Of a DNA stretch of 64,000 nucleotides, positions 18,276-29,821 are shown piece after piece (position 1 is the stretch's first letter; the number at the start of each line of letters is the position of its first letter). The translations under genes were made by a program, and so were the position numbers. This DNA comes from a virus: IMG/VR virus record IMGVR_UViG_3300013426_000002, positions 1 to 64,000 of that record; one strand, given 5' to 3'. The notes under the pieces are model-generated. The model was not told the origin of the DNA. It did not search any database and was given only the letters and a program-made list of their open reading frames with translations.

Positions 18276-18743
18276 ATGAGATATATAAATAATTATAATT
18301 ATAATACTCTTATTATAATAGATAGTAAAAATAATGAAACAGTAGGAAAAGTATTATTAGATATTGAAGATATACCAAAAATACAAAAATATCATTGGAG
18401 ATTAAATGAAAAAGGCTATGTAATAGCATCAATAAAAGGACATAAAACTATAAGAATACACAATTTAATATTAGAAAGAGATACAAGTAATCAAAAAATT
18501 ACTTGTGACCATATAAATAGAAATAAACTGGATAATAGAAAAGAAAATTTGAGAATAATATCACATTTAGAAAACAACTTAAATACGGATAGAATAGAAA
18601 AAGGAAAAGGATATTGTTTTAGAAAAGATAGAAATAGATGGATGGCTTATATTAAAAAAGATAATAAAATGAAAACTATAGGATATTTTAATACTGAAGA
18701 AGAAGCAAAACAAGCAAGAAGTCTTTACTGTGAGAATCAGTGA
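18276..18743 (+). CDS. Free-standing HNH homing endonuclease with an AP2-like DNA-binding domain
   Basis: The HNH core is CDHINRNKLDNRKENLRIISHLENN. The C-terminal segment RWMAYIKKDNKMKTIGYFNTEEEAKQAR is AP2-type. ORF-free DNA flanks the gene on both sides. Confidence 0.8.
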   Translation: MRYINNYNYNTLIIIDSKNNETVGKVLLDIEDIPKIQKYHWRLNEKGYVIASIKGHKTIRIHNLILERDTSNQKITCDHINRNKLDNRKENLRIISHLENNLNTDRIEKGKGYCFRKDRNRWMAYIKKDNKMKTIGYFNTEEEAKQARSLYCENQ

Positions 18744-18996
18744 TAAACTTGTGGGGCTCATGTCTTATCAAAAGGGTGGCCAACTTTTAGATAGCATTAG
18801 TGCGGACGTTAAAATCAAGTAGATGATAAGAATTGTACTGACAATACAATTCTGCTGTATCTTAAAATAAGTATTGATAGTCAAATTTTCCTAAACCAAT
18901 CCTCGTTATTAGGTAAAATTTCTTTTTGTTTATATGTTGCTACAACAACATTATTAATTAGATCCATTATGGTTGTAGACATAATGGCGTCATCAA

Positions 18997-21122: not shown

Positions 21123-21139
21123 TAACAACTCCAAACCTG

Positions 21140-21451
21140 TGCCGATAAGTACTGTAAAGCTTATCAATTAATATTAGTGTCTTTACATTTATAGAGACAC
21201 TAATACTAGTTAGTGCCGTAAGTTATTTAAACCGAACGTGTAAGTAGGTAACAAGTTGAATTGACAACTTCCCTCAAGTGCTATATGCCGTAGGGTGGAA
21301 AAACAACGTGCCACTGATCATGTGCCGAAGATCATTACTATTGTTTTAGCTATTGTACTTTATGTCCTGCATAAAAACAATAGGCTCTATTCATAGAGTT
21401 TTATAGTAATGGTTATCAAAACACATATAGAAATTGTGCTTTATGCCGAAG
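21140..21451 (+). repeat. Five dispersed copies of an RTGCCG(W)nAAG/TAG box in an ORF-free region
   Basis: The copies are GTGCCGATAAG (21140), GTGCCGTAAG (21214), ATGCCGTAGGG (21285), GTGCCGAAG (21322) and ATGCCGAAG (21443). Confidence 0.6.
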
Positions 21452-21739
21452 TTTTATTTTTAATATATAGTATAAATGTTAAGTAAACCGTATAAATACG
21501 GTCTTCAAAATATTTATACAAACTTCAATTTCTATCAGTCTATCAAAGGCACAGAATCCTAAGTAATATAATGCTTTATGCTTAAATACTATTTTTAGAA
21601 AACAGAAATGCGTAAAATGTTCATATTCTGATGGTAAGCGTCTTTAGACAGTAGAACCGAAATAGAATCCGACAACTTACGGTCGCTCTATAAAGAAGAT
21701 TTAGTATTACTTAGGATAAACTCTTAAAAATTTACAATT

Positions 21740-21871
21740 ATGGATTGGACAAGAGAAGACTTAGAAAATAAGCCAAAAGAAGAACTTATAGACATTATTA
21801 TGAATATTCAGAAAGATCTGAAAGATATTCTATATCTGTATAATGATACAGATGATGACTATGATAAATAG
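21740..21871 (+). CDS. Possible 43-aa acidic ORF
   Basis: MDWTREDLENKPKEELIDIIMNIQKDLKDILYLYNDTDDDYDK. A 10-bp hairpin with a GAGA loop follows at 21874-21897. Confidence 0.4.
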   Translation: MDWTREDLENKPKEELIDIIMNIQKDLKDILYLYNDTDDDYDK

Positions 21872-21970
21872 AGAGTAAGGAGAGAGATCTCCTTACTTTC
21901 ACTATCTCCATGATTTTTAACATTATTCACAATATAAGAACTGTATTGTGTCTTATTAGGCTTATTAATC

Positions 21971-22006
21971 ATTGTTAGGACGAGGGTTCGACTCCCTCCA
22001 GCTCCA
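21971..22006 (+). ncRNA. ssrA: tmRNA acceptor piece (3' half of the tRNA-like domain) of a permuted ssrA gene; its 5' boundary is undetermined and could reach about 21874
   Basis: The sequence is ATTGTTA-GGAC-GAGGG-TTCGACT-CCCTC-CAGCTCC-A. That gives a T arm plus a 3' acceptor strand complementary to GGGGCTG at 22092, with a G3:U70 pair. ATTGTTA pairs with TAGCAAT at 22111 as a P2-like helix. Confidence 0.75.
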
Positions 22007-22091
22007 CGTGAATGGTACTTGCTCGATGTGTAGTTGTACCCGGTTATGTAATATCGTAAGCATCGTTTTATCCATAACGTATAATGGATAT

Positions 22092-22225
22092 GGGGCTGCA
22101 TGGATTTGACTAGCAATAGAAAGATAAGATAGGTTCAACATTCTATTAAATGGCAACTATTCGTTTGTCACTGATTACTCTTGCGTAGCGTAAGATTATG
22201 ATGCGTGCTAAATACGAAAGTTAGG
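22092..22225 (+). ncRNA. ssrA: tmRNA coding piece: 5' acceptor strand, GGAUUUGAC box and tag reading frame; the 3' boundary is approximate
   Basis: GGGGCTGCATGGATTTGAC closely matches the universal tmRNA 5' end (GGGGCUG...GGAUUCGAC). Two candidate tag frames are present. From the GCA at 22153 the tag is ATIRLSLITLA then stop. From the GGC at 22152 it is GNYSFVTDYSCVA then stop. Confidence 0.7.
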
Positions 22226-22227
22226 GA

Positions 22228-22298
22228 TACTCCTTAGTTTAATCGGTTAGAACCACGAATTTTACCGTGAAATATGAGTTCGAGTCTCATAGGAGTAA
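22228..22298 (+). tRNA. tRNA-like gene with a non-canonical anticodon arm; anticodon not assignable by eye
   Basis: The acceptor stem is TACTCCT/AGGAGTA. The D arm is GTTT-AATCGGTTA-GAAC. The T arm is ATGAG-TTCGAGT-CTCAT. The anticodon arm is only CACG/CGTG (4 bp) around AATTTTAC (8 nt). Total length is 71 nt. Confidence 0.6.
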
Positions 22299-23989: not shown

Positions 23990-24556
23990 ATGAAAGAAGA
24001 AGAGAAAATTCTAATTGAAAAGGCGAAGCACGGTGATGAGAAAGCCTTTACACAATTATATGATAATTATTATCGTCTAATACGATACATCATATTTGAT
24101 GCAATAAAAGATGAAGAAGCAACAGCTGATTTATTATCTGTTACTTTTACTAAGGCTTTTAAACGACTCGATTATTTTGTTGAAACTATTTCTTTTGAAG
24201 CATGGTTAAAAACTATCGCAATAAATACAGTCATCGACTATATTAGAAAGAATAAGAATCAACAAGATAACATCTCTATAGATAATGAGGACAATGCAAT
24301 TCAAATATCTAGTGATAATGATCCCGAAACTGATTTAATTAAATCAGAGTCAATAGATATTCTTAGAATTGCATTAACTCGACTTAGAGCTAAATATAGG
24401 AACCTTCTAGAACTCAGATATTTTAGTCATCTAAGTTATGAGGAGTTAAGTGCTAAGCTTAATATACCAGTCGGAACTGTAAAGTCTGACCTAAATAAAG
24501 CAAAGCATAGACTCAGATATTATTTTCAAAAAATTTCAAAAACTAACAAAACATGA
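23990..24556 (+). CDS. ECF-type sigma-70 family RNA polymerase sigma factor
   Basis: The region 2 pattern is FTQLYDNYYRLIRYIIFDAIKDEEATADLLSVTFTKAFKRLDYF...FEAWLKTIAINTVIDYIRKNK. The region 4 HTH is YRNLLELRYFSHLSYEELSAKLNIPVGTVKSDLNKAKHRL. Confidence 0.8.
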   Translation: MKEEEKILIEKAKHGDEKAFTQLYDNYYRLIRYIIFDAIKDEEATADLLSVTFTKAFKRLDYFVETISFEAWLKTIAINTVIDYIRKNKNQQDNISIDNEDNAIQISSDNDPETDLIKSESIDILRIALTRLRAKYRNLLELRYFSHLSYEELSAKLNIPVGTVKSDLNKAKHRLRYYFQKISKTNKT

Positions 24557-25019: not shown

Positions 25020-26417
25020 ATGGGAAATAATAAAAACAAAGGTCAAAAGATTGACGATAAAACAAAGAAAACTACTGCCGCTACTGCGGCTGCACCGGTT
25101 GCACAGACCAAGAAAGAACAGCCGAAGACTGGATTGAAGGAAGATAAAACTCCTAAACCCGCTGCTCCTATTCCTCCTAAAAAAGAAGAGAAAAAGGAGA
25201 CAAAGAAACCTGTTACTGATGCTACTGGTACAGTAGAGAATGTAGCAGCAGAAGAAGTAAAGAAACCTGTAACATCTCCATTAGAATCACCTAAAATTGA
25301 TTCTCTGGTAGCATTAATGGGACCCAATGATCTCATGGATGCAAATCATGCTGCAGTATTTCTGTCAACACTTGAACGTCGTACCGCACGTATGGATCGT
25401 AGCAAACCTATCACAATTCAAATGGAATCCATGTTGGATTACAATATGATGTGGTATGCTGTACGTTTGTCCGTACAATCATTTGCGCAGAAACGTGAAT
25501 GCAATATGCTTACGCCGAATGATGAACTCATTGTTCAGCAGGCTATTGATACAGCTGCATCCATGGGTGTTGCTCTTGAGGCTCATCCTACAGATGATCC
25601 TACTCAGATGCGTCTTGAGTTTAAAGAGATTTCTCCTGAAACGAAAGCAGCAGCTGAAGCGGAGAACACAGCTCAAGGTTTGACCTCAACAGCTAAACCA
25701 CCTAAACACGTGGTTCTTACCGAGGAACAGATGAATCCTTTGAACTGGAAGAATGATGATGAAGCAAAAGCTGCCATCAATCAGGACCTTCAGATATCCG
25801 GAGAAACTCCATCTAATAAATTCTTGCGTATCTTGGGTAAAATTAAGACGTATCGTGAGAACGTTACGGAAGACCCTGTACAAAAAGGAATCTGGAGTAA
25901 TGCAAATTTGGGAACCCTTGCAAAAGAGTATTTCAATATTATCGGTAAGAAAGGCATTGTTGTACTCTCTGGACTCATGTCTTCTACTACAACTTCATTG
26001 AAGTTAGGTCAAACTATGATCTTTGCACATTCTCTGTTACGGAAGAATATGAAAGGTCTGAGTGACCAGGATGTAGTAGATCTGATTAAATCATTTATTG
26101 AAGTAATGCATACAGATCCTGCTCAGCCTATTGAACAAGATCCTTGTGTAGTAAAGGGTATTTTGGCTCCAACACGCGATACATTTGTACGTATTGCATT
26201 ACAGAAGCCGGCAGAAGATGAACTTATTGATTGGTTCAAGAAGATTATGGGACCGTTCTATGACATCTATAAAGATGAAGTAGGTTCTAAATCTGATGAA
26301 GATTTTGCTCTGAAAGCAGCTAACAAGATGATCGAAATACGTAACTTGTATGTAGATAAAGATGCTGCATATCCACTCTTTACAAAAGAGGATTTCAAAG
26401 CTGTAGTAGGTGCTTAA
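25020..26417 (+). CDS. 465-aa protein with a K/P/T/A-rich basic N-terminal tail of about 95 aa and a globular C-terminal domain; function unknown
   Basis: The ORF has strong codon bias and higher G+C. The N-terminus is KKTTAATAAAPVAQTKKEQPKTGLKEDKTPKPAAPIPPKKEEKKETKKPV. Several alternative-frame and antisense ORFs inside it are rejected. Confidence 0.8.
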   Translation: MGNNKNKGQKIDDKTKKTTAATAAAPVAQTKKEQPKTGLKEDKTPKPAAPIPPKKEEKKETKKPVTDATGTVENVAAEEVKKPVTSPLESPKIDSLVALMGPNDLMDANHAAVFLSTLERRTARMDRSKPITIQMESMLDYNMMWYAVRLSVQSFAQKRECNMLTPNDELIVQQAIDTAASMGVALEAHPTDDPTQMRLEFKEISPETKAAAEAENTAQGLTSTAKPPKHVVLTEEQMNPLNWKNDDEAKAAINQDLQISGETPSNKFLRILGKIKTYRENVTEDPVQKGIWSNANLGTLAKEYFNIIGKKGIVVLSGLMSSTTTSLKLGQTMIFAHSLLRKNMKGLSDQDVVDLIKSFIEVMHTDPAQPIEQDPCVVKGILAPTRDTFVRIALQKPAEDELIDWFKKIMGPFYDIYKDEVGSKSDEDFALKAANKMIEIRNLYVDKDAAYPLFTKEDFKAVVGA

Positions 26418-26814
26418 CCTATTATATCAAATGAAAGGTAAATTTGCTTATTTAGCAGTGTTCGTTGTAGGAATTATTATGTCCTATAACACTAACATTT
26501 TCAAACCAGAAAGTGTTACGGCAACTGAAATTGTAAAACCAATTCAGTTATCACCAATACCAGGTAGTTTTAAACTTAACCTGGACTTAGAGACAGGTAA
26601 AAGTATCGTGAAAAGTAATATACCCGTTACAAGTACTGATATTACTGTCAATCACCCCACGAAAATCGTGGAAAAGGTAGTATATAAACAATCTAAACCC
26701 AAAGTAATATATGAAACAAAAACTGAGGTACAAATGAGGCCGGTAATGTTCACTCTACCAACTCCCCGCTCTCACAAATTTGTACCTGAGTATCCTAAAA
26801 GAGTAGAGAAATGA
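26410..26814 (+). CDS. 134-aa protein with an N-terminal transmembrane anchor
   Basis: It contains FAYLAVFVVGIIMSY and overlaps the upstream gene by 8 nt. Confidence 0.65.
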   Translation: MLNLLYQMKGKFAYLAVFVVGIIMSYNTNIFKPESVTATEIVKPIQLSPIPGSFKLNLDLETGKSIVKSNIPVTSTDITVNHPTKIVEKVVYKQSKPKVIYETKTEVQMRPVMFTLPTPRSHKFVPEYPKRVEK

Positions 26815-26909
26815 AACAAAAAATAACTAAAATTAATGTAATATCATTAATTGGTATTATATTATTCTATTTATTTTGTTTATTTTTTGCTTATTGTATT
26901 AGTGATTAA
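26811..26909 (+). CDS. Possible 32-aa membrane peptide
   Basis: It has an ATGA overlap with the previous stop. The sequence is MKQKITKINVISLIGIILFYLFCLFFAYCISD. Confidence 0.4.
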   Translation: MKQKITKINVISLIGIILFYLFCLFFAYCISD

Positions 26910-29281
26910 CTATGTGCTTACCGTAGAATGGCACCGGGATAAATAAGTTCTCTCCCGTAGTAAGAAAAAGAATAAATCGTAAATCGTCAACAGAAAGGCA
27001 TTTAATGTATCAGTTTGGCGTCGTGGTATTGTTAGCTATACACGTTAAAAGCAATAAAATAGCGTATATAAGTTTATTAAATAGTCGACGATTTAATATA
27101 TTTATATAGACAAGTAATACAGGATATGAGAATATGATAATAGTTAACGCTATGATTCAAAAGGTAATATGATAGCTTACTATGGATTTATTACTTTATC
27201 CATGAAAAATTAGTAAGAAAATGGGATAGCGTGCAAAGCCCATAAAATCTTGAGAACCGTTTGGTGAAGATTTAAAAGACGCGATCTAGGTCAGCAGACA
27301 CGAAGACAAACTAAGCAAAGGTATCGGCATCCTAAAGTAAATATAGTTATGAGATATATTTATGAGTGTATTGAAGTCTACACAAAGGAGAAACCTATGT
27401 CCGTGGGTACGATCATGTACGAAATCAAGAAGGGACTAAACACGAGTTGCCCCTTAGTTAATATCCAAAGGTTAACTAAGTTTTGACTCCTGACTAACGT
27501 TCTTGGGTGTGTCCAAAGCATCCATTCTGAAGCTACTGTTGGAAGACGTAGATAAGATAAAAATGCTACTGTAGTGTTCTCTACAAGGTACCAAATGGTT
27601 TAAATTGGAACGTATGTTTAAATACATATAAAAGTAGATATGAAGGCAGAGAGATTAATCGAGGGTGCTATTAGGTGCTACATGAAAAAGTAAAGCAGTA
27701 CAATTCTGCAATCTTTTATTCGTGGAAATAAAGGATAACAGTCTGTGTTATTACTTTAGAGTATATGGCTGAGAGGCTATGATCCATACAATGAACTTTA
27801 AATTCATAAATATAATAAGAATTCGAGACTTTTATTATATTTGAGTATGATAGATTATCCGGATTAGGTGCCAAACCTATACTTAATAGAACGATTAATA
27901 CGAATGTGTCAGTGTTTGCTTCAAGTTATGACACAATAATATATGGAAAGAAGCAGGTTGTAAAAGTGTCCTATAACACTACTACAGAATAACGACATCC
28001 TTTAGCAAGATGGTTACTTCGCAAGAAGTGAGAGGGATCTCAATAATTTACGTTATCGAAAAGTTAAATACGCCGGTAGAAACACCGTTATCCGAGAAGA
28101 AGGGTAGAAGTTCAATCAGATCTCAGTTAAAGCTTTCCGAGAGATAAAAAGCGAAAGTGGGACTAATGATTAATTGTCAATGGGTTAAATTCAATTTGGG
28201 GACACGCCCCAATCAACTATTTCCTGACAGCAATGTATCACTGACCCGAGAGTTAACGTCACTCTTAAACAAAAGCGTGGATAACATGTTTAACTAAAGT
28301 AGTGGCTACGCCCACGAATAATAAATCCAGGGGAGTCCCCGCTAGGGATAATAGATTCTGCTGTTGTATAGTAGTATATGTTTCCTGACTGCGTCCTTGG
28401 CAAGCCAACCGTTATTGCTAATAAAACTAATAGAGTATGTTGCGCAACAATATATGTTCATTAGAAAGCGTTTCATGAATCTTCATAGACTGGATACCTG
28501 TCATGCGGAAAGAGTAGTGAAAAGTAGGTGAAAGTCCTCAATATTCGTGCTTGTAAAACAACCTATGGGCAGTATACTGCATAGAATTTAAAAACCGTTG
28601 CTGCATTTGTAGGGCAGAACTATTTAAGTAACGTTAGAAAACGACCGTATCTGTGACGGATTCGATAAAGTGGTAAATATTAACTTCTAGGAAATCATAA
28701 GCTACATGATGAGCCAATTCACGTGTGCAACTATCTTGCAAATAGTTACTTGTATTTGTGATTACTTGAGATTAACCCTGAGACGCCAGGAAATACTAAG
28801 TTAATATGATGAGCAATAGTTCCTTTCTTTTAAGCGTAAAAGAATTGTAAAATCTAAAGTAATGGTATTAGATGTGTATACAAATGTCTTGGATCTCATT
28901 AGTCCTAAGAACAAGCTGTACAAGATCAAAAATATGATAAGCTGTAGTTTACACAGACACTCGTGTAAGTAATATTAATTCTGGTATCCGAACTACATTT
29001 GTAGAAGCAAGGAAAGCAGAAAGGAAGAGGAAGTATCTACCTTGATTTTGATGTAAATAAAATCATTAATATGAAGACTATGCGTTTAAAGCAAAAAAAA
29101 AGATTACACTTTGTAAAGGATTGTACTTGAATGTACATAGACGATTAGCCATATCCTCTATATAATAAAATCTATACAAAGAGAGCAAAACTCGTTTAAT
29201 TTAAACTCATAAATATGTAAATCAATTGTTTAATCTCTCCGTAGGTGGAATCAACCACGGAATCAAAAAAGGAATTTTAAA
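26910..29281 (+). other. 2.37-kb ORF-free, G+C-elevated region; candidate large structured ncRNA(s); strand assumed from flanking genes
   Basis: The track has no ORF of 60 aa or more in any of six frames. TAA, TAG and TGA are interleaved in every frame I translated. Sampled lines are 38-48% G+C against about 12-27% in adjacent coding lines. There are many GC-rich hairpins and GNRA-like loops (see findings). Confidence 0.45.
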
Positions 29282-29821
29282 ATGGATAAATCAGTTATTT
29301 TAGCATCACAGTGTGGTGCAACACTTGGCAAATATATTCTCATTATTGAGAAAAATTCAGTAGATCCGAATTATTCACGGAAAGTACAGAATAATGAACT
29401 ACGGACTAGTCAGCAGATTAATCTTTATTCAATTAAACCCGTTAAGGTTAAAGTTGCACGGGAAGTAGAAAGTGCAGAAGGTACAAAATTCGTAGAATAT
29501 AATGATGATCCGAAGTTACGGCTTCAGATTTCTGGAATCAACGATATTGCAGATATTATCCCGAAGCCCAACGCGGAAAGTGTAAAGAATGCTATCACTC
29601 GGTTTGAAGCAACCGGTGAAAGTACAATCTTTATTGATTATCCACAGTTGACAAAAGAGGTTGTTGCCTTGAACATGGAATCACGGGGAAAACTTACAGC
29701 ATTTGTCAACGAACAGATGCGGTTTATCAAGACATTTGAAACCGCAAACGAGACTGAAATTGCTGCTTGTAAAACAGCAATGGCTGCTGAGGGCATTGAA
29801 ATTAATGGTTATTTCGGATAA
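29282..29821 (+). CDS. Hypothetical 179-aa protein
   Basis: ORF with higher-G+C codon usage. Confidence 0.75.
   Translation: MDKSVILASQCGATLGKYILIIEKNSVDPNYSRKVQNNELRTSQQINLYSIKPVKVKVAREVESAEGTKFVEYNDDPKLRLQISGINDIADIIPKPNAESVKNAITRFEATGESTIFIDYPQLTKEVVALNMESRGKLTAFVNEQMRFIKTFETANETEIAACKTAMAAEGIEINGYFG

Follow-up and report, generated by a model that had tools for sequence, protein, structure and literature searches.

What kind of genetic information is held by more than 2.3 kb of phage DNA in which no gene can be discerned? The question is raised by positions 26910–29281 of the window analysed here (the first 64,000 nucleotides of the IMG/VR virus record IMGVR_UViG_3300013426_000002). The window derives from a human gut crAss-like phage of the family Suoliviridae (delta-group) and includes the giant minus-strand open reading frames (ORFs) that are typical of crAss-like phages. 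In a BLASTN search against GenBank phages, the gap produced full-length matches (88% identity) in cr1_1 and cr55_1 (Suoliviridae, Boorivirinae, Culoivirus) and partial matches (70–75%) in cr50_1 (Cohcovirus) and cr10_1 (Canhaevirus). In cr1_1 (NC_055873), the homologous region is at 42.1–44.6 kb. The comparisons described below indicate that the gap holds a large, multi-domain structured RNA locus, a conserved hallmark of Suoliviridae that has no known relatives and whose structured part extends over ~26.92–29.15 kb (~2.2 kb). That this is a functional, structured non-coding RNA (ncRNA) locus which, additionally, is expressed as a single transcript and depends on its fold, we consider likely; the claim of a structured RNA, taken alone, is slightly more secure.

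26915–29145, + strand: candidate structured ncRNA locus as a whole (~2.2 kb), with its ends inferred from conservation and covariation

The gap is not protein-coding. The ORF-free stretch covers 26815–29281 (2,467 nt) and is the only one in the window longer than 740 nt, the runner-up being 736 nt long; the intergenic region proper is 26910–29281, as chosen in the initial annotation, and this start is apt because 26811–26909 is a conserved 32-aa ORF, which fills the first 95 nt of the ORF-free stretch. A six-frame scan of 26815–29281 detected no ORF of 60 aa or more, as had been reported from inspection of the sequence, the longest one being 55 aa (28364–28531). Each of TAA, TAG and TGA occurs 9–45 times in every one of the six frames of the gap, and reassignment of any single stop codon yields open stretches of at most 146 codons, so that the earlier argument that such recoding could not rescue a gene stands. 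Compared with cr1_1, substitutions in the gap are distributed over the three phases as 63/52/66 (p=0.41), whereas the four flanking genes show 28/19/118, 8/3/19, 10/6/50 and 6/0/24, with a third-position bias at p from 1e-3 to 2e-24; for gap pairs within Oafivirinae and within Uncouvirinae, substitutions are saturated in this comparison of codon periodicity. The alignment with cr1_1 additionally contains ~30 indels in the gap, mostly of 1–2 nt and mostly not multiples of three. The aligned identity to cr1_1 is 92.1% for the gap and 88–94% for the flanking genes; thus, the gap is conserved at the level of genes without synonymous sites to absorb change, which implies that the nucleotide sequence itself is under purifying selection. 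This selection is at least as strong as that on the neighbours. The description of the region as a G+C-elevated island did not survive measurement: the G+C content is 33.8% in the gap and 31.5% in the window, and the local values in the gap (27–41%) show overlap with neighbouring genes, where values of up to 45% occur.

The gap is conserved across the entire family. Homologous loci were identified by a search with the protein encoded downstream of the gap (35 IMG/VR loci), and the same two genes flank a gap of 2.3–2.5 kb in nearly all of 39 loci; a gap was counted as free if it contained no ORF of at least 80 aa, among loci with an upstream ORF in range (locus L037 has none in range). In 3–4 Culoivirus-type loci, there is an 88-aa ORF within the gap, which we regard as a chance occurrence. 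The identity of the flanking proteins drops to 31–35% across the gap loci, and the RNA blocks are 70–75% identical in sister genera in which the fast-evolving 465-aa protein encoded upstream retains 35% and 26% identity, such that conservation of the gap equals or exceeds that of the flanking genes. The initial annotation had allowed that relatives might encode a conserved protein here; their gaps are kept ORF-free, and the substitutions relative to cr1_1 show no codon periodicity.

The other four subfamilies were sampled by anchoring on an ECF-type sigma factor that is encoded three genes upstream of the locus in all five subfamilies of Suoliviridae. The representatives were cr6_1 (Bearivirinae), cr109_1 (Loutivirinae), cr118_1 and cr114_1 (Uncouvirinae), and cr7_1 and cr273_1 (Oafivirinae). 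All six share the gene order and have an annotation gap of 1.85–2.2 kb at the matching place, in some of them broken only by short or minus-strand “hypothetical proteins”; hence a gap of 1.85–2.5 kb occupies one syntenic position in all five subfamilies. A profile hidden Markov model built from the Boorivirinae alignment (nhmmer) gave collinear + strand matches in 4 of these six loci, with E values from 7e-21 to 6e-11. A near-invariant block of 26–28 nt (27847–27874) recurs in 66 viral and 83 metagenome stretches, mostly human-gut assemblies, many of them on contigs of ~100 kb. Its 26-nt pattern had zero matches in 185,579 bacterial and archaeal species-representative genomes and is therefore a family-specific conserved marker.

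Within the homologous non-coding regions, RefSeq records several “hypothetical proteins” that are probably spurious:

L003 5043–5228: ORF annotated as cr10_1 gp22
L191 10840–11001: ORF annotated as cr114_1 gp096, lying under the covariance-model match at L191 10771–10979 (see below)
L189 6510–6947, minus strand: ORF annotated as cr109_1 gp34, 145 aa
L192 11361–11843, minus strand: ORF annotated as cr7_1 gp52, 160 aa

The longest standard-code ORFs that we detected by scanning the gaps of cr109_1 and cr7_1 are 67 and 62 aa, shorter than the annotated 145 and 160 aa, and the annotated small ORFs in the gap are not kept between lineages.

What selection preserves in the gap is, to a large extent, base pairing. 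The homologues were clustered at 98.8% identity, and the resulting 44 sequences, representing roughly ten lineages, were aligned. On the + strand, a structure-blind scan for stacked antiparallel canonical columns detected 26 helices in which 3 or more pairs are compensated, compared with 14 on the minus strand and 1–3 in column shuffles; the long-range 4-bp helices from the covariation scan were discarded as noise, given that shuffles produced them at a similar rate and that their A-C cells equal their G-U cells. The RNAalifold consensus (span up to 700, 44 sequences) comprises 61 helices with 311 pairs, of which 138 show both-sided (compensatory) changes. In slid controls, with every 3′ partner shifted by 1–2 columns, the number of covarying pairs falls from 138 to 42–51, that of covarying cells from 1,396 to 162–236, and the fraction of paired cells from 92.7% to 38–43%; the excess of covariation over these controls is seen in every segment of 27015–29000. 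About 60 helices are maintained through compensatory substitutions. The large structured ncRNA proposed in the initial annotation is thus supported by conservation and covariation, strongly so in every domain within ~27015–29000.

Formal tests were performed on the 3′ core and 5′ domains, the coordinates of which are listed below:

28125–28560 (3′ core domain; alignment A3, 42 sequences): 52 pairs, 26 with both-sided changes (5–9 in slid controls); 99.0% of cells paired (slid 35–41%); covariation score 0.403 (slid at most 0.083), reached by 0 of 500 shuffles
27105–27310 (5′ domain; alignment A6, 13 sequences from four subfamilies): 37 pairs, 28 with both-sided changes (10–16 in slid controls); 84.7% of cells paired (slid 35–47%); covariation score 0.484 (slid at most 0.112), reached by 0 of 500 shuffles

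For the 5′ domain, none of the 500 shuffles matched the observed value on any of the five measures, two of which unstructured related sequences seldom exceed, according to the calibration of the tool itself. A covariance model (R1) derived from alignment A6 produced exactly one full-length + strand match per genome in all five subfamilies, namely, at 27105–27310 of the window (209 bits) and in each of the six loci from the other subfamilies (L188–L193). For loci left out of the model, the scores were 96 bits (cr114_1), 64 bits (cr118_1) and 64 bits (cr7_1), with E ~1e-12 or better.

The conserved helices are organized into a series of domains:

26935–39 with 26953–57, + strand: 5′-most conserved hairpin, CGGGA/UCCCG, 2 of 5 pairs covary
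27023–27063, + strand: upstream element of the 5′ domain, with the helix GCUAU/AUAGC (27035–39/27059–63) in which 4 of 5 pairs covary
27105–27310, + strand: 5′ domain, conserved in all five Suoliviridae subfamilies
27124–27/27167–70, 27140–43/27150–53, 27176–82/27211–17, 27221–24/27240–43, 27246–51/27267–72 and 27290–92/27297–99, + strand: helices of the 5′ domain
27399–27437, + strand: internal hairpin-plus-tail motif, GUCCGUGG-GUAC-GAUCAU-GUAC-GAAAUCAAGAAGGGAC, in which 27407–10/27417–20 covaries at 4 of 4 pairs
27504–27524, + strand: hairpin UGGGUGU/GCAUCCA with the conserved loop GUCCAAA, 6 of 7 pairs covary (20 G-U cells, 0 A-C cells)
27767–28128, + strand: middle domain, with the long-range closing helix GGCUGAGA (27767–74)/UCUCAGUU (28121–28)
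27865–79, + strand: hairpin UAGGU-GCCAA-ACCUA in the middle domain, in which 27865–69/27875–79 covaries at 3 pairs
28125–28560, + strand: 3′ core domain, holding the conserved AGGUG(A/G)AAGUCCU (28526–38)
28132–39/28150–58, 28182–87/28242–47, 28196–99/28206–09 and 28327–32/28395–400, + strand: 3′ core helices, first part
28401–05/28549–53, 28427–42/28448–64 and 28481–90/28500–09, + strand: 3′ core helices, second part
28628–45, 28646–64, 28709–22, 28777–90, 28891–905 and 28954–83, + strand: 3′ hairpin series (within 28620–29000)
29123–29145, + strand: last supported hairpin, GUAC-UUGAAU-GUAC, followed by the conserved (A/G)UAG(A/G)CGAU, 3 of 4 pairs covary

The 5′-most hairpin occurs in the variants CGGGG/CCCCG, CAGGU/ACCUG and CGGGU/ACCCG, and is followed by a conserved box, C(C/U)GUA(G/A)UAAGA, that extends to 26966. 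Between this hairpin and the 5′ domain, the window has an insertion of ~47 nt (26968–27014) that is peculiar to it among all relatives and includes a tandem duplication of TAAATCG. Also at the left border, the locus L034 (~2524–2640) combines a Canhaevirus-type RNA body with a 5′ flank (small ORF and first hairpin) identical to that of the L042 lineage, a mosaic which, judged from the sequences, suggests recombination at this border. In the upstream element, the complementarities GUGGUA..UACAC and UAUUG..CAAUA interleave with GCUAU/AUAGC, a possible pseudoknot inferred by eye; the alignment shows compensatory variants of this element. Within the 5′ domain, the helix 27246–51/27267–72 encloses the near-invariant GAGAACCG..UGG (27252–27264; GAGAACCA in one homologue); a kink-turn interpretation of the GAGAACC..GG element was dropped, given that the GA of the 3′ strand is not conserved in the alignment.

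The internal hairpin-plus-tail motif is closed by 27399–404/27431–36, and its stem varies as GCAC/GUGC and AGGA/UCCU. In the 8-bp helix that closes the middle domain, 2 pairs are compensatory and 4 are of the wobble type, and the near-invariant 28-nt block 27847–27874 belongs to this domain. In the 3′ core, the hairpin TTGGGG/CCCCAA (28196–28212), identified originally by eye, is confirmed, with covariation at 4 of 4 pairs. Two other elements named at that stage give way to different pairings: in place of GGGG-AGT-CCCC (28330–28340), the conserved pairing is CCAGGG (28327–32) with CCUUGG (28395–400), which covaries at 5 of 6 pairs, and GCGAAAG at 28151, taken for a GNRA loop, is the 3′ strand of the invariant helix GCUUUC (28132–37)/GAAAGU. 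The repeated submodules TCCTGACW and ATATGATRAGC, suggested at the same time, are no more common than in window-wide shuffles; nevertheless, three of the four copies of TCCTGACW are in the gap, two of them in conserved blocks. In the 3′ hairpin series, covariation is seen at 22 of 34 pairs (7–12 in slid controls), with pairing in 94.2% of cells, and the hairpin 28891–905 has a conserved CUCAUUAG loop region. The last supported hairpin (29123–29136) has the variants GCAA..UUGC and GUCA..UGAC, and the structured part probably reaches its 3′ limit here, at 29123–29145; it is followed by a poorly conserved, AT-rich spacer (~29146–29238) with a weak hairpin and a U-run in some lineages. Credible longer-range pairings are 27767–74/28121–28, 28327–32/28395–400 and 28401–05/28549–53.

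Interspersed with the helices are conserved unpaired blocks, namely, GAGAACCG..UGG, GUCCAAA, GCCAA, UAACAUGU, CUGA(C/A)UGCG, AAAGCGU, AGAGUA, AGGUG(A/G)AAGUCCU and CAUUAG, and whole hairpins are gained or lost at fixed sites in particular lineages. This combination is the pattern of rRNA, RNase P and other RNAs that rely on a three-dimensional fold.

The RNA is likely to be encoded on the + strand, as indicated by the asymmetry of wobble pairs along with the gene context. In a hand tally of local (span <200 nt) Watson-Crick-compensated helices, there are ~176 G-U cells and 54 A-C cells; several of the G-U pairs either do not vary or switch to A-U or G-C by a change in one partner only. Independent folds of the alignment yielded −307 for the + strand and −270 for the minus strand, and all surrounding genes are on the + strand.

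Known RNA families offer no identification. A search with the Rfam 15 models (4,227) at gathering scores found nothing in the locus, and with E values up to 10 across 26700–29400, it returned just two chance-level C/D small nucleolar RNA matches (E ~8); the homologous gaps of five divergent relatives gave no Rfam match either, in accord with the initial annotation, which could not assign the region to any RNA family. The locus is therefore not GOLLD, ROOL, OLE, HEARO, raiA, a group I/II intron, RNase P RNA or rRNA. Nor did Rfam match it to transfer-messenger RNA (tmRNA), the phage having its own tmRNA elsewhere (21951–22193). For introns, additionally, the flanking genes are complete and separately conserved, and the longest inner ORF is the one of 55 aa. 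The locus does have the features by which large ornate structured ncRNAs are grouped, a descriptive class rather than a homologous family: a length above ~500 nt without coding capacity, and many covarying helices with conserved unpaired nucleotides.

Several large RNAs provide points of comparison. The OLE RNA forms a ribonucleoprotein (RNP) that is anchored in the membrane via OapA. OLE and the present locus are both large structured RNAs with unknown biochemical function, but the latter has no Rfam match and is encoded by a phage rather than a bacterium; homologues of OapA, OapB and OapC were not detected among the neighbouring proteins in Pfam and PHROG profile searches. The transmembrane-helix proteins encoded nearby (125, 134 and 32 aa) invite the speculative idea of a membrane-tethered RNP. 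With rRNA, RNase P RNA and group II introns, the locus shares the kilobase size class, conserved cores and lineage-specific hairpin insertions at fixed sites; unlike these, it has no covariance-model match at E up to 10, no flanking exons or intron-encoded protein, and no catalytic-core signatures that we could identify. The element AGGUGAAAGUCCU (28526–38) is, as we take it, reminiscent of RNase P CR-I, with no match to an RNase P covariance model.

The closest parallels are GOLLD (~800 nt) and ROOL (~600 nt), large ornate RNAs that are often encoded by phages or prophages near tRNAs. These are, likewise, large, elaborate phage-borne RNAs with many covarying helices, conserved unpaired nucleotides and unknown function, and here, too, the genome region also carries tRNA and tmRNA genes. 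The differences are that neither covariance model matches, that the locus is some three to four times longer, going by the lengths just given, and that it resides in Suoliviridae phages of Bacteroidota as opposed to Lactobacillales or rumen taxa. Hosts predicted for Suoliviridae are Prevotella/Segatella or Bacteroides; for Bohxovirus, the prediction is Prevotella jejuni (PMC12697116). GOLLD and ROOL have been shown by cryo-electron microscopy (cryo-EM) to form RNA-only homo-oligomeric cages (PMC12286853). Full-text literature searches yielded no description of the present RNA. The words non-coding, ncRNA, intergenic and tmRNA are all absent from a 2023 review of Crassvirales (PMC10136315), and crAss phages go unmentioned in a catalogue that comprises over 10,000 structured-RNA candidates from viruses, with motifs averaging 67 nt; the tables of this catalogue could include individual hairpins of the locus (PMC10690425).

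One element of the RNA recurs outside it. The hairpin-plus-tail motif, UCCGU(A/G)G-[4 bp]-(A/G)AUCA(A/U)-[4 bp]-G(A/G)AAUCAA...AGGA, is present inside the RNA (27399–27437) and again in the leader of the downstream gene:

29239–29275, + strand: leader copy, CCGUAG-GUGG-AAUCAA-CCAC-GGAAUCAAAAAAGGAAU, unique in the window

The leader copy stops 6 nt short of the start codon (29282) of the 179-aa gene and includes its Shine-Dalgarno-like AAGGA. The stems vary between copies and lineages and stay complementary (GUAC/GUAC, GCAC/GUGC, AGGA/UCCU, GUGG/CCAC); cr6_1, from another subfamily (Bearivirinae), has the leader copy with 97% identity, and this copy occurs in the Culoivirus, Cohcovirus and Afonbuvirus lineages. 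Ribosomal proteins are known to regulate their own mRNAs through mimicry of their rRNA site. The arrangement here is similar, in some lineages and at the sequence level, in that one motif is found both in a large structural RNA and over the adjacent Shine-Dalgarno region; it differs in that no binding protein is known, that the downstream protein is acidic and that the leader copy is lost in several lineages. By analogy, a shared binding factor could, more tentatively, couple expression of the 179-aa gene to the RNA by mimicry of the binding site. The CCGTAG boxes reported at both borders are present (26921, 26955 and 29239). Their interpretation as ECF-type promoters (AAC-N16-CGT) was rejected because the spacing does not fit.

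Taken together, these observations make a trans-acting architectural or catalytic RNA of the early/middle phase the best-supported reading. Such an RNA would be transcribed in infected cells as a single long molecule, with the strand shared by the early/middle genes around it (ECF-type sigma factor, tmRNA, tRNAs and DNA polymerase), and, in parallel with GOLLD and ROOL, would work through its three-dimensional architecture, as an RNP or an RNA-only scaffold or machine, rather than through base-pairing with targets. More specifically, a single RNA of ~2 kb or larger that represents a new ornate class and acts as an RNA machine or as an RNP or RNA-only assembly has, in our estimate, somewhat less than an even chance of being correct; it might possibly also be needed for infection of Bacteroidota and have a dedicated protein partner that is regulated via the binding-site mimic. 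Any specific mechanism is far more doubtful. If it is one transcript, this would be, to our knowledge, the largest structured phage RNA and, ribosomal RNAs aside, the largest structured ncRNA in any phage or bacterium.

Several results weigh against this interpretation. Beyond Boorivirinae, detection at the sequence level (nhmmer) is clear for the 5′ half only. When all listed helices are counted, including the noisy long-range 4-bp candidates, G-U cells number 410 and A-C cells 298, which is moderate evidence for the strand. Single-sequence folding energy is unremarkable in comparison with shuffles (z from −2.8 to +0.9 per 300-nt tile). There is no well-supported helix between the 5′ and 3′ ends, and the longest credible pairings span ~150–360 nt; the fold, therefore, does not decide between one molecule and several. 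The leader copy of the hairpin-plus-tail motif is missing in the L022, L025 and L034 lineages, and the neighbouring proteins give no RNA-related clue in searches of Pfam, PHROG, PDB and Foldseek. Finally, no conserved site for the Bacteroidota −7 box (TAnnTTTG) was found before or inside the locus, and scans for sigma-70-like promoters and intrinsic terminators returned chance-level counts. Transcription may continue into the RNA from upstream genes, followed by processing, or may start at a phage-specific promoter; the enzyme may be the phage RNA polymerase, or the host polymerase with the phage ECF sigma factor.

Instead of one molecule, the locus could comprise several separate structured RNAs (for example, four to six of 150–500 nt, or processed pieces), although this is unlikely. 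Such an array would fit the modular architecture, with locally closed domains and no supported helix beyond ~360 nt, the differing phylogenetic breadth of the domains (the 5′ domain is universal, and the 3′ domains are partly detectable outside Boorivirinae), the whole-hairpin insertions and deletions specific to lineages, and the proximity of other small RNAs (Hatchet ribozyme, tmRNA and tRNAs). What argues for one molecule is that the total length is kept at 1.85–2.5 kb family-wide, that the conserved blocks follow one another in strictly collinear order, that internal promoter- or terminator-like signals do not exceed chance, and that no long unstructured, unconserved spacers separate the domains across 27015–29000. 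We give much less credence to a very long structured 5′ leader that would regulate the downstream operon (179-aa gene onward) in cis, acting on elongation or translation and not in trans. The RNA directly adjoins the downstream genes on the same strand, no + strand terminator was detected between it and the 179-aa gene, and the ribosome-binding site of that gene is covered in part by the terminal hairpin motif, a second copy of which is found within the RNA. However, several lineages have a hairpin with a U-run and an AT-rich spacer before the gene, the terminal motif is lost in lineages that keep the whole RNA, the RNA is far better conserved than the 179-aa gene, and we are aware of no cis-regulatory leader that comes close in size and complexity.

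Explanations that involve no RNA fare worse still. A DNA-level element, such as a replication origin, packaging site or terminal repeat, with hairpins forming in the DNA, is highly improbable. Large non-coding regions in phages are often origins, the gap belongs to the replication module and precedes the DNA polymerase gene, and compensatory changes would preserve DNA cruciforms as well. Yet iterons are absent, repeat scans detected only trivial tandem and direct repeats, the G+C content is not below that of the surroundings, and ~60 distinct helices with conserved loops and a strand asymmetry of G-U over A-C would be unexpected in duplex DNA. Every relative examined has the locus at the same place in its gene order, and we accordingly rejected an origin, packaging region or terminal repeat, a possibility raised in the initial annotation; this comparison concerns gene order, not the distance to genome ends. 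A cryptic or decayed protein-coding region (recoded, frameshifted, split by introns, or a cluster of micro-ORFs) is hardly credible. Stop-codon reassignment and introns are known in Suoliviridae (PMC7886860), and RefSeq calls short ORFs in the homologous regions. Against this stand the occurrence of all three stops in all frames, the lack of codon periodicity, the indels that are not multiples of three and the lack of group I/II intron matches; the annotated small ORFs are restricted to lineages, and one of them lies under a covariance-model match.

The surroundings of the structured RNA locus include further RNA elements and the genes that served as anchors:

18721–18820, + strand: Hatchet ribozyme (Rfam RF02678), 77.5 bits with a gathering score of 51
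21951–22193 (Rfam) or 21917–22284 (ARAGORN), + strand: permuted tmRNA, tag peptide GNYSFVTDYSCVA*
22228–22298, + strand: tRNA that the tmRNA runs directly into, anticodon unreadable by ARAGORN
23990–24556, + strand: gene for an ECF-type sigma factor (Pfam Sigma70_r2, Sigma70_r4, Sigma70_ECF)
25020–26417, + strand: gene for the 465-aa upstream protein
ending at 26814, + strand: 134-aa gene, the last gene upstream of the ORF-free stretch
26811–26909, + strand: small ORF for a hydrophobic 32-aa peptide, MKQKITKINVISLIGIILFYLFCLFFAYCISD, at the left boundary and outside the RNA
start codon at 29282, + strand: 179-aa downstream gene, the first gene after the gap

The window carries two tRNAs in all; the homologue of the tRNA next to the tmRNA is annotated in cr1_1 as tRNA-Lys. 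The Hatchet ribozyme overlaps the 3′ end of a 155-aa ORF (18276–18743). The second-largest ORF-free stretch of the window (21123–21858, 736 nt), upstream of the tmRNA, may host further RNA elements; at 21288, it contains CCGTAGGGTGGAA, similar to the first part of the hairpin motif at 29239.

The ECF-type sigma factor is a candidate driver of transcription for the gene block around the RNA locus, and it is the sole match of the neighbouring proteins to Pfam and PHROGs. The 32-aa ORF overlaps the stop codon of the 134-aa gene and is kept as a protein in Cohcovirus-type relatives (…LAFVGLIIFFIMCLFFAWCIT*); the cr1_1 annotation records no feature under the match. The three small flanking proteins (125, 134 and 32 aa) have N-terminal or single transmembrane helices, and the 465-aa protein combines a disordered N-terminal region of ~90 aa, rich in Lys, Pro, Thr and Ala, with an all-alpha body; these features are compatible with, and no proof of, a nucleic-acid-binding or membrane-tethered RNP. 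The 179-aa protein is acidic (isoelectric point 5.4) and has no recognisable RNA-binding fold. The flanking proteins produced no match to PDB sequences, and a Foldseek search of PDB with the AlphaFold models of the 179-aa and 465-aa proteins (pLDDT 78.8 and 70.5, respectively) returned nothing below E=0.4.

The findings correct genome annotation, in that the RefSeq “hypothetical proteins” within the locus are probably spurious. If the single-RNA interpretation is true, the short list of very large structured ncRNAs (GOLLD, ROOL and OLE) would gain a member several times larger, and the RNA would be an attractive target for cryo-EM and in the search for new RNA folds, ribozymes or RNA-protein machines. 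The human gut virome is dominated by crAss-like phages, and an RNA of kilobase size that is kept across a whole family of these phages, and kept better than the proteins encoded next to it, implies an important, hitherto unrecognised RNA-based function in crAss-like phages.

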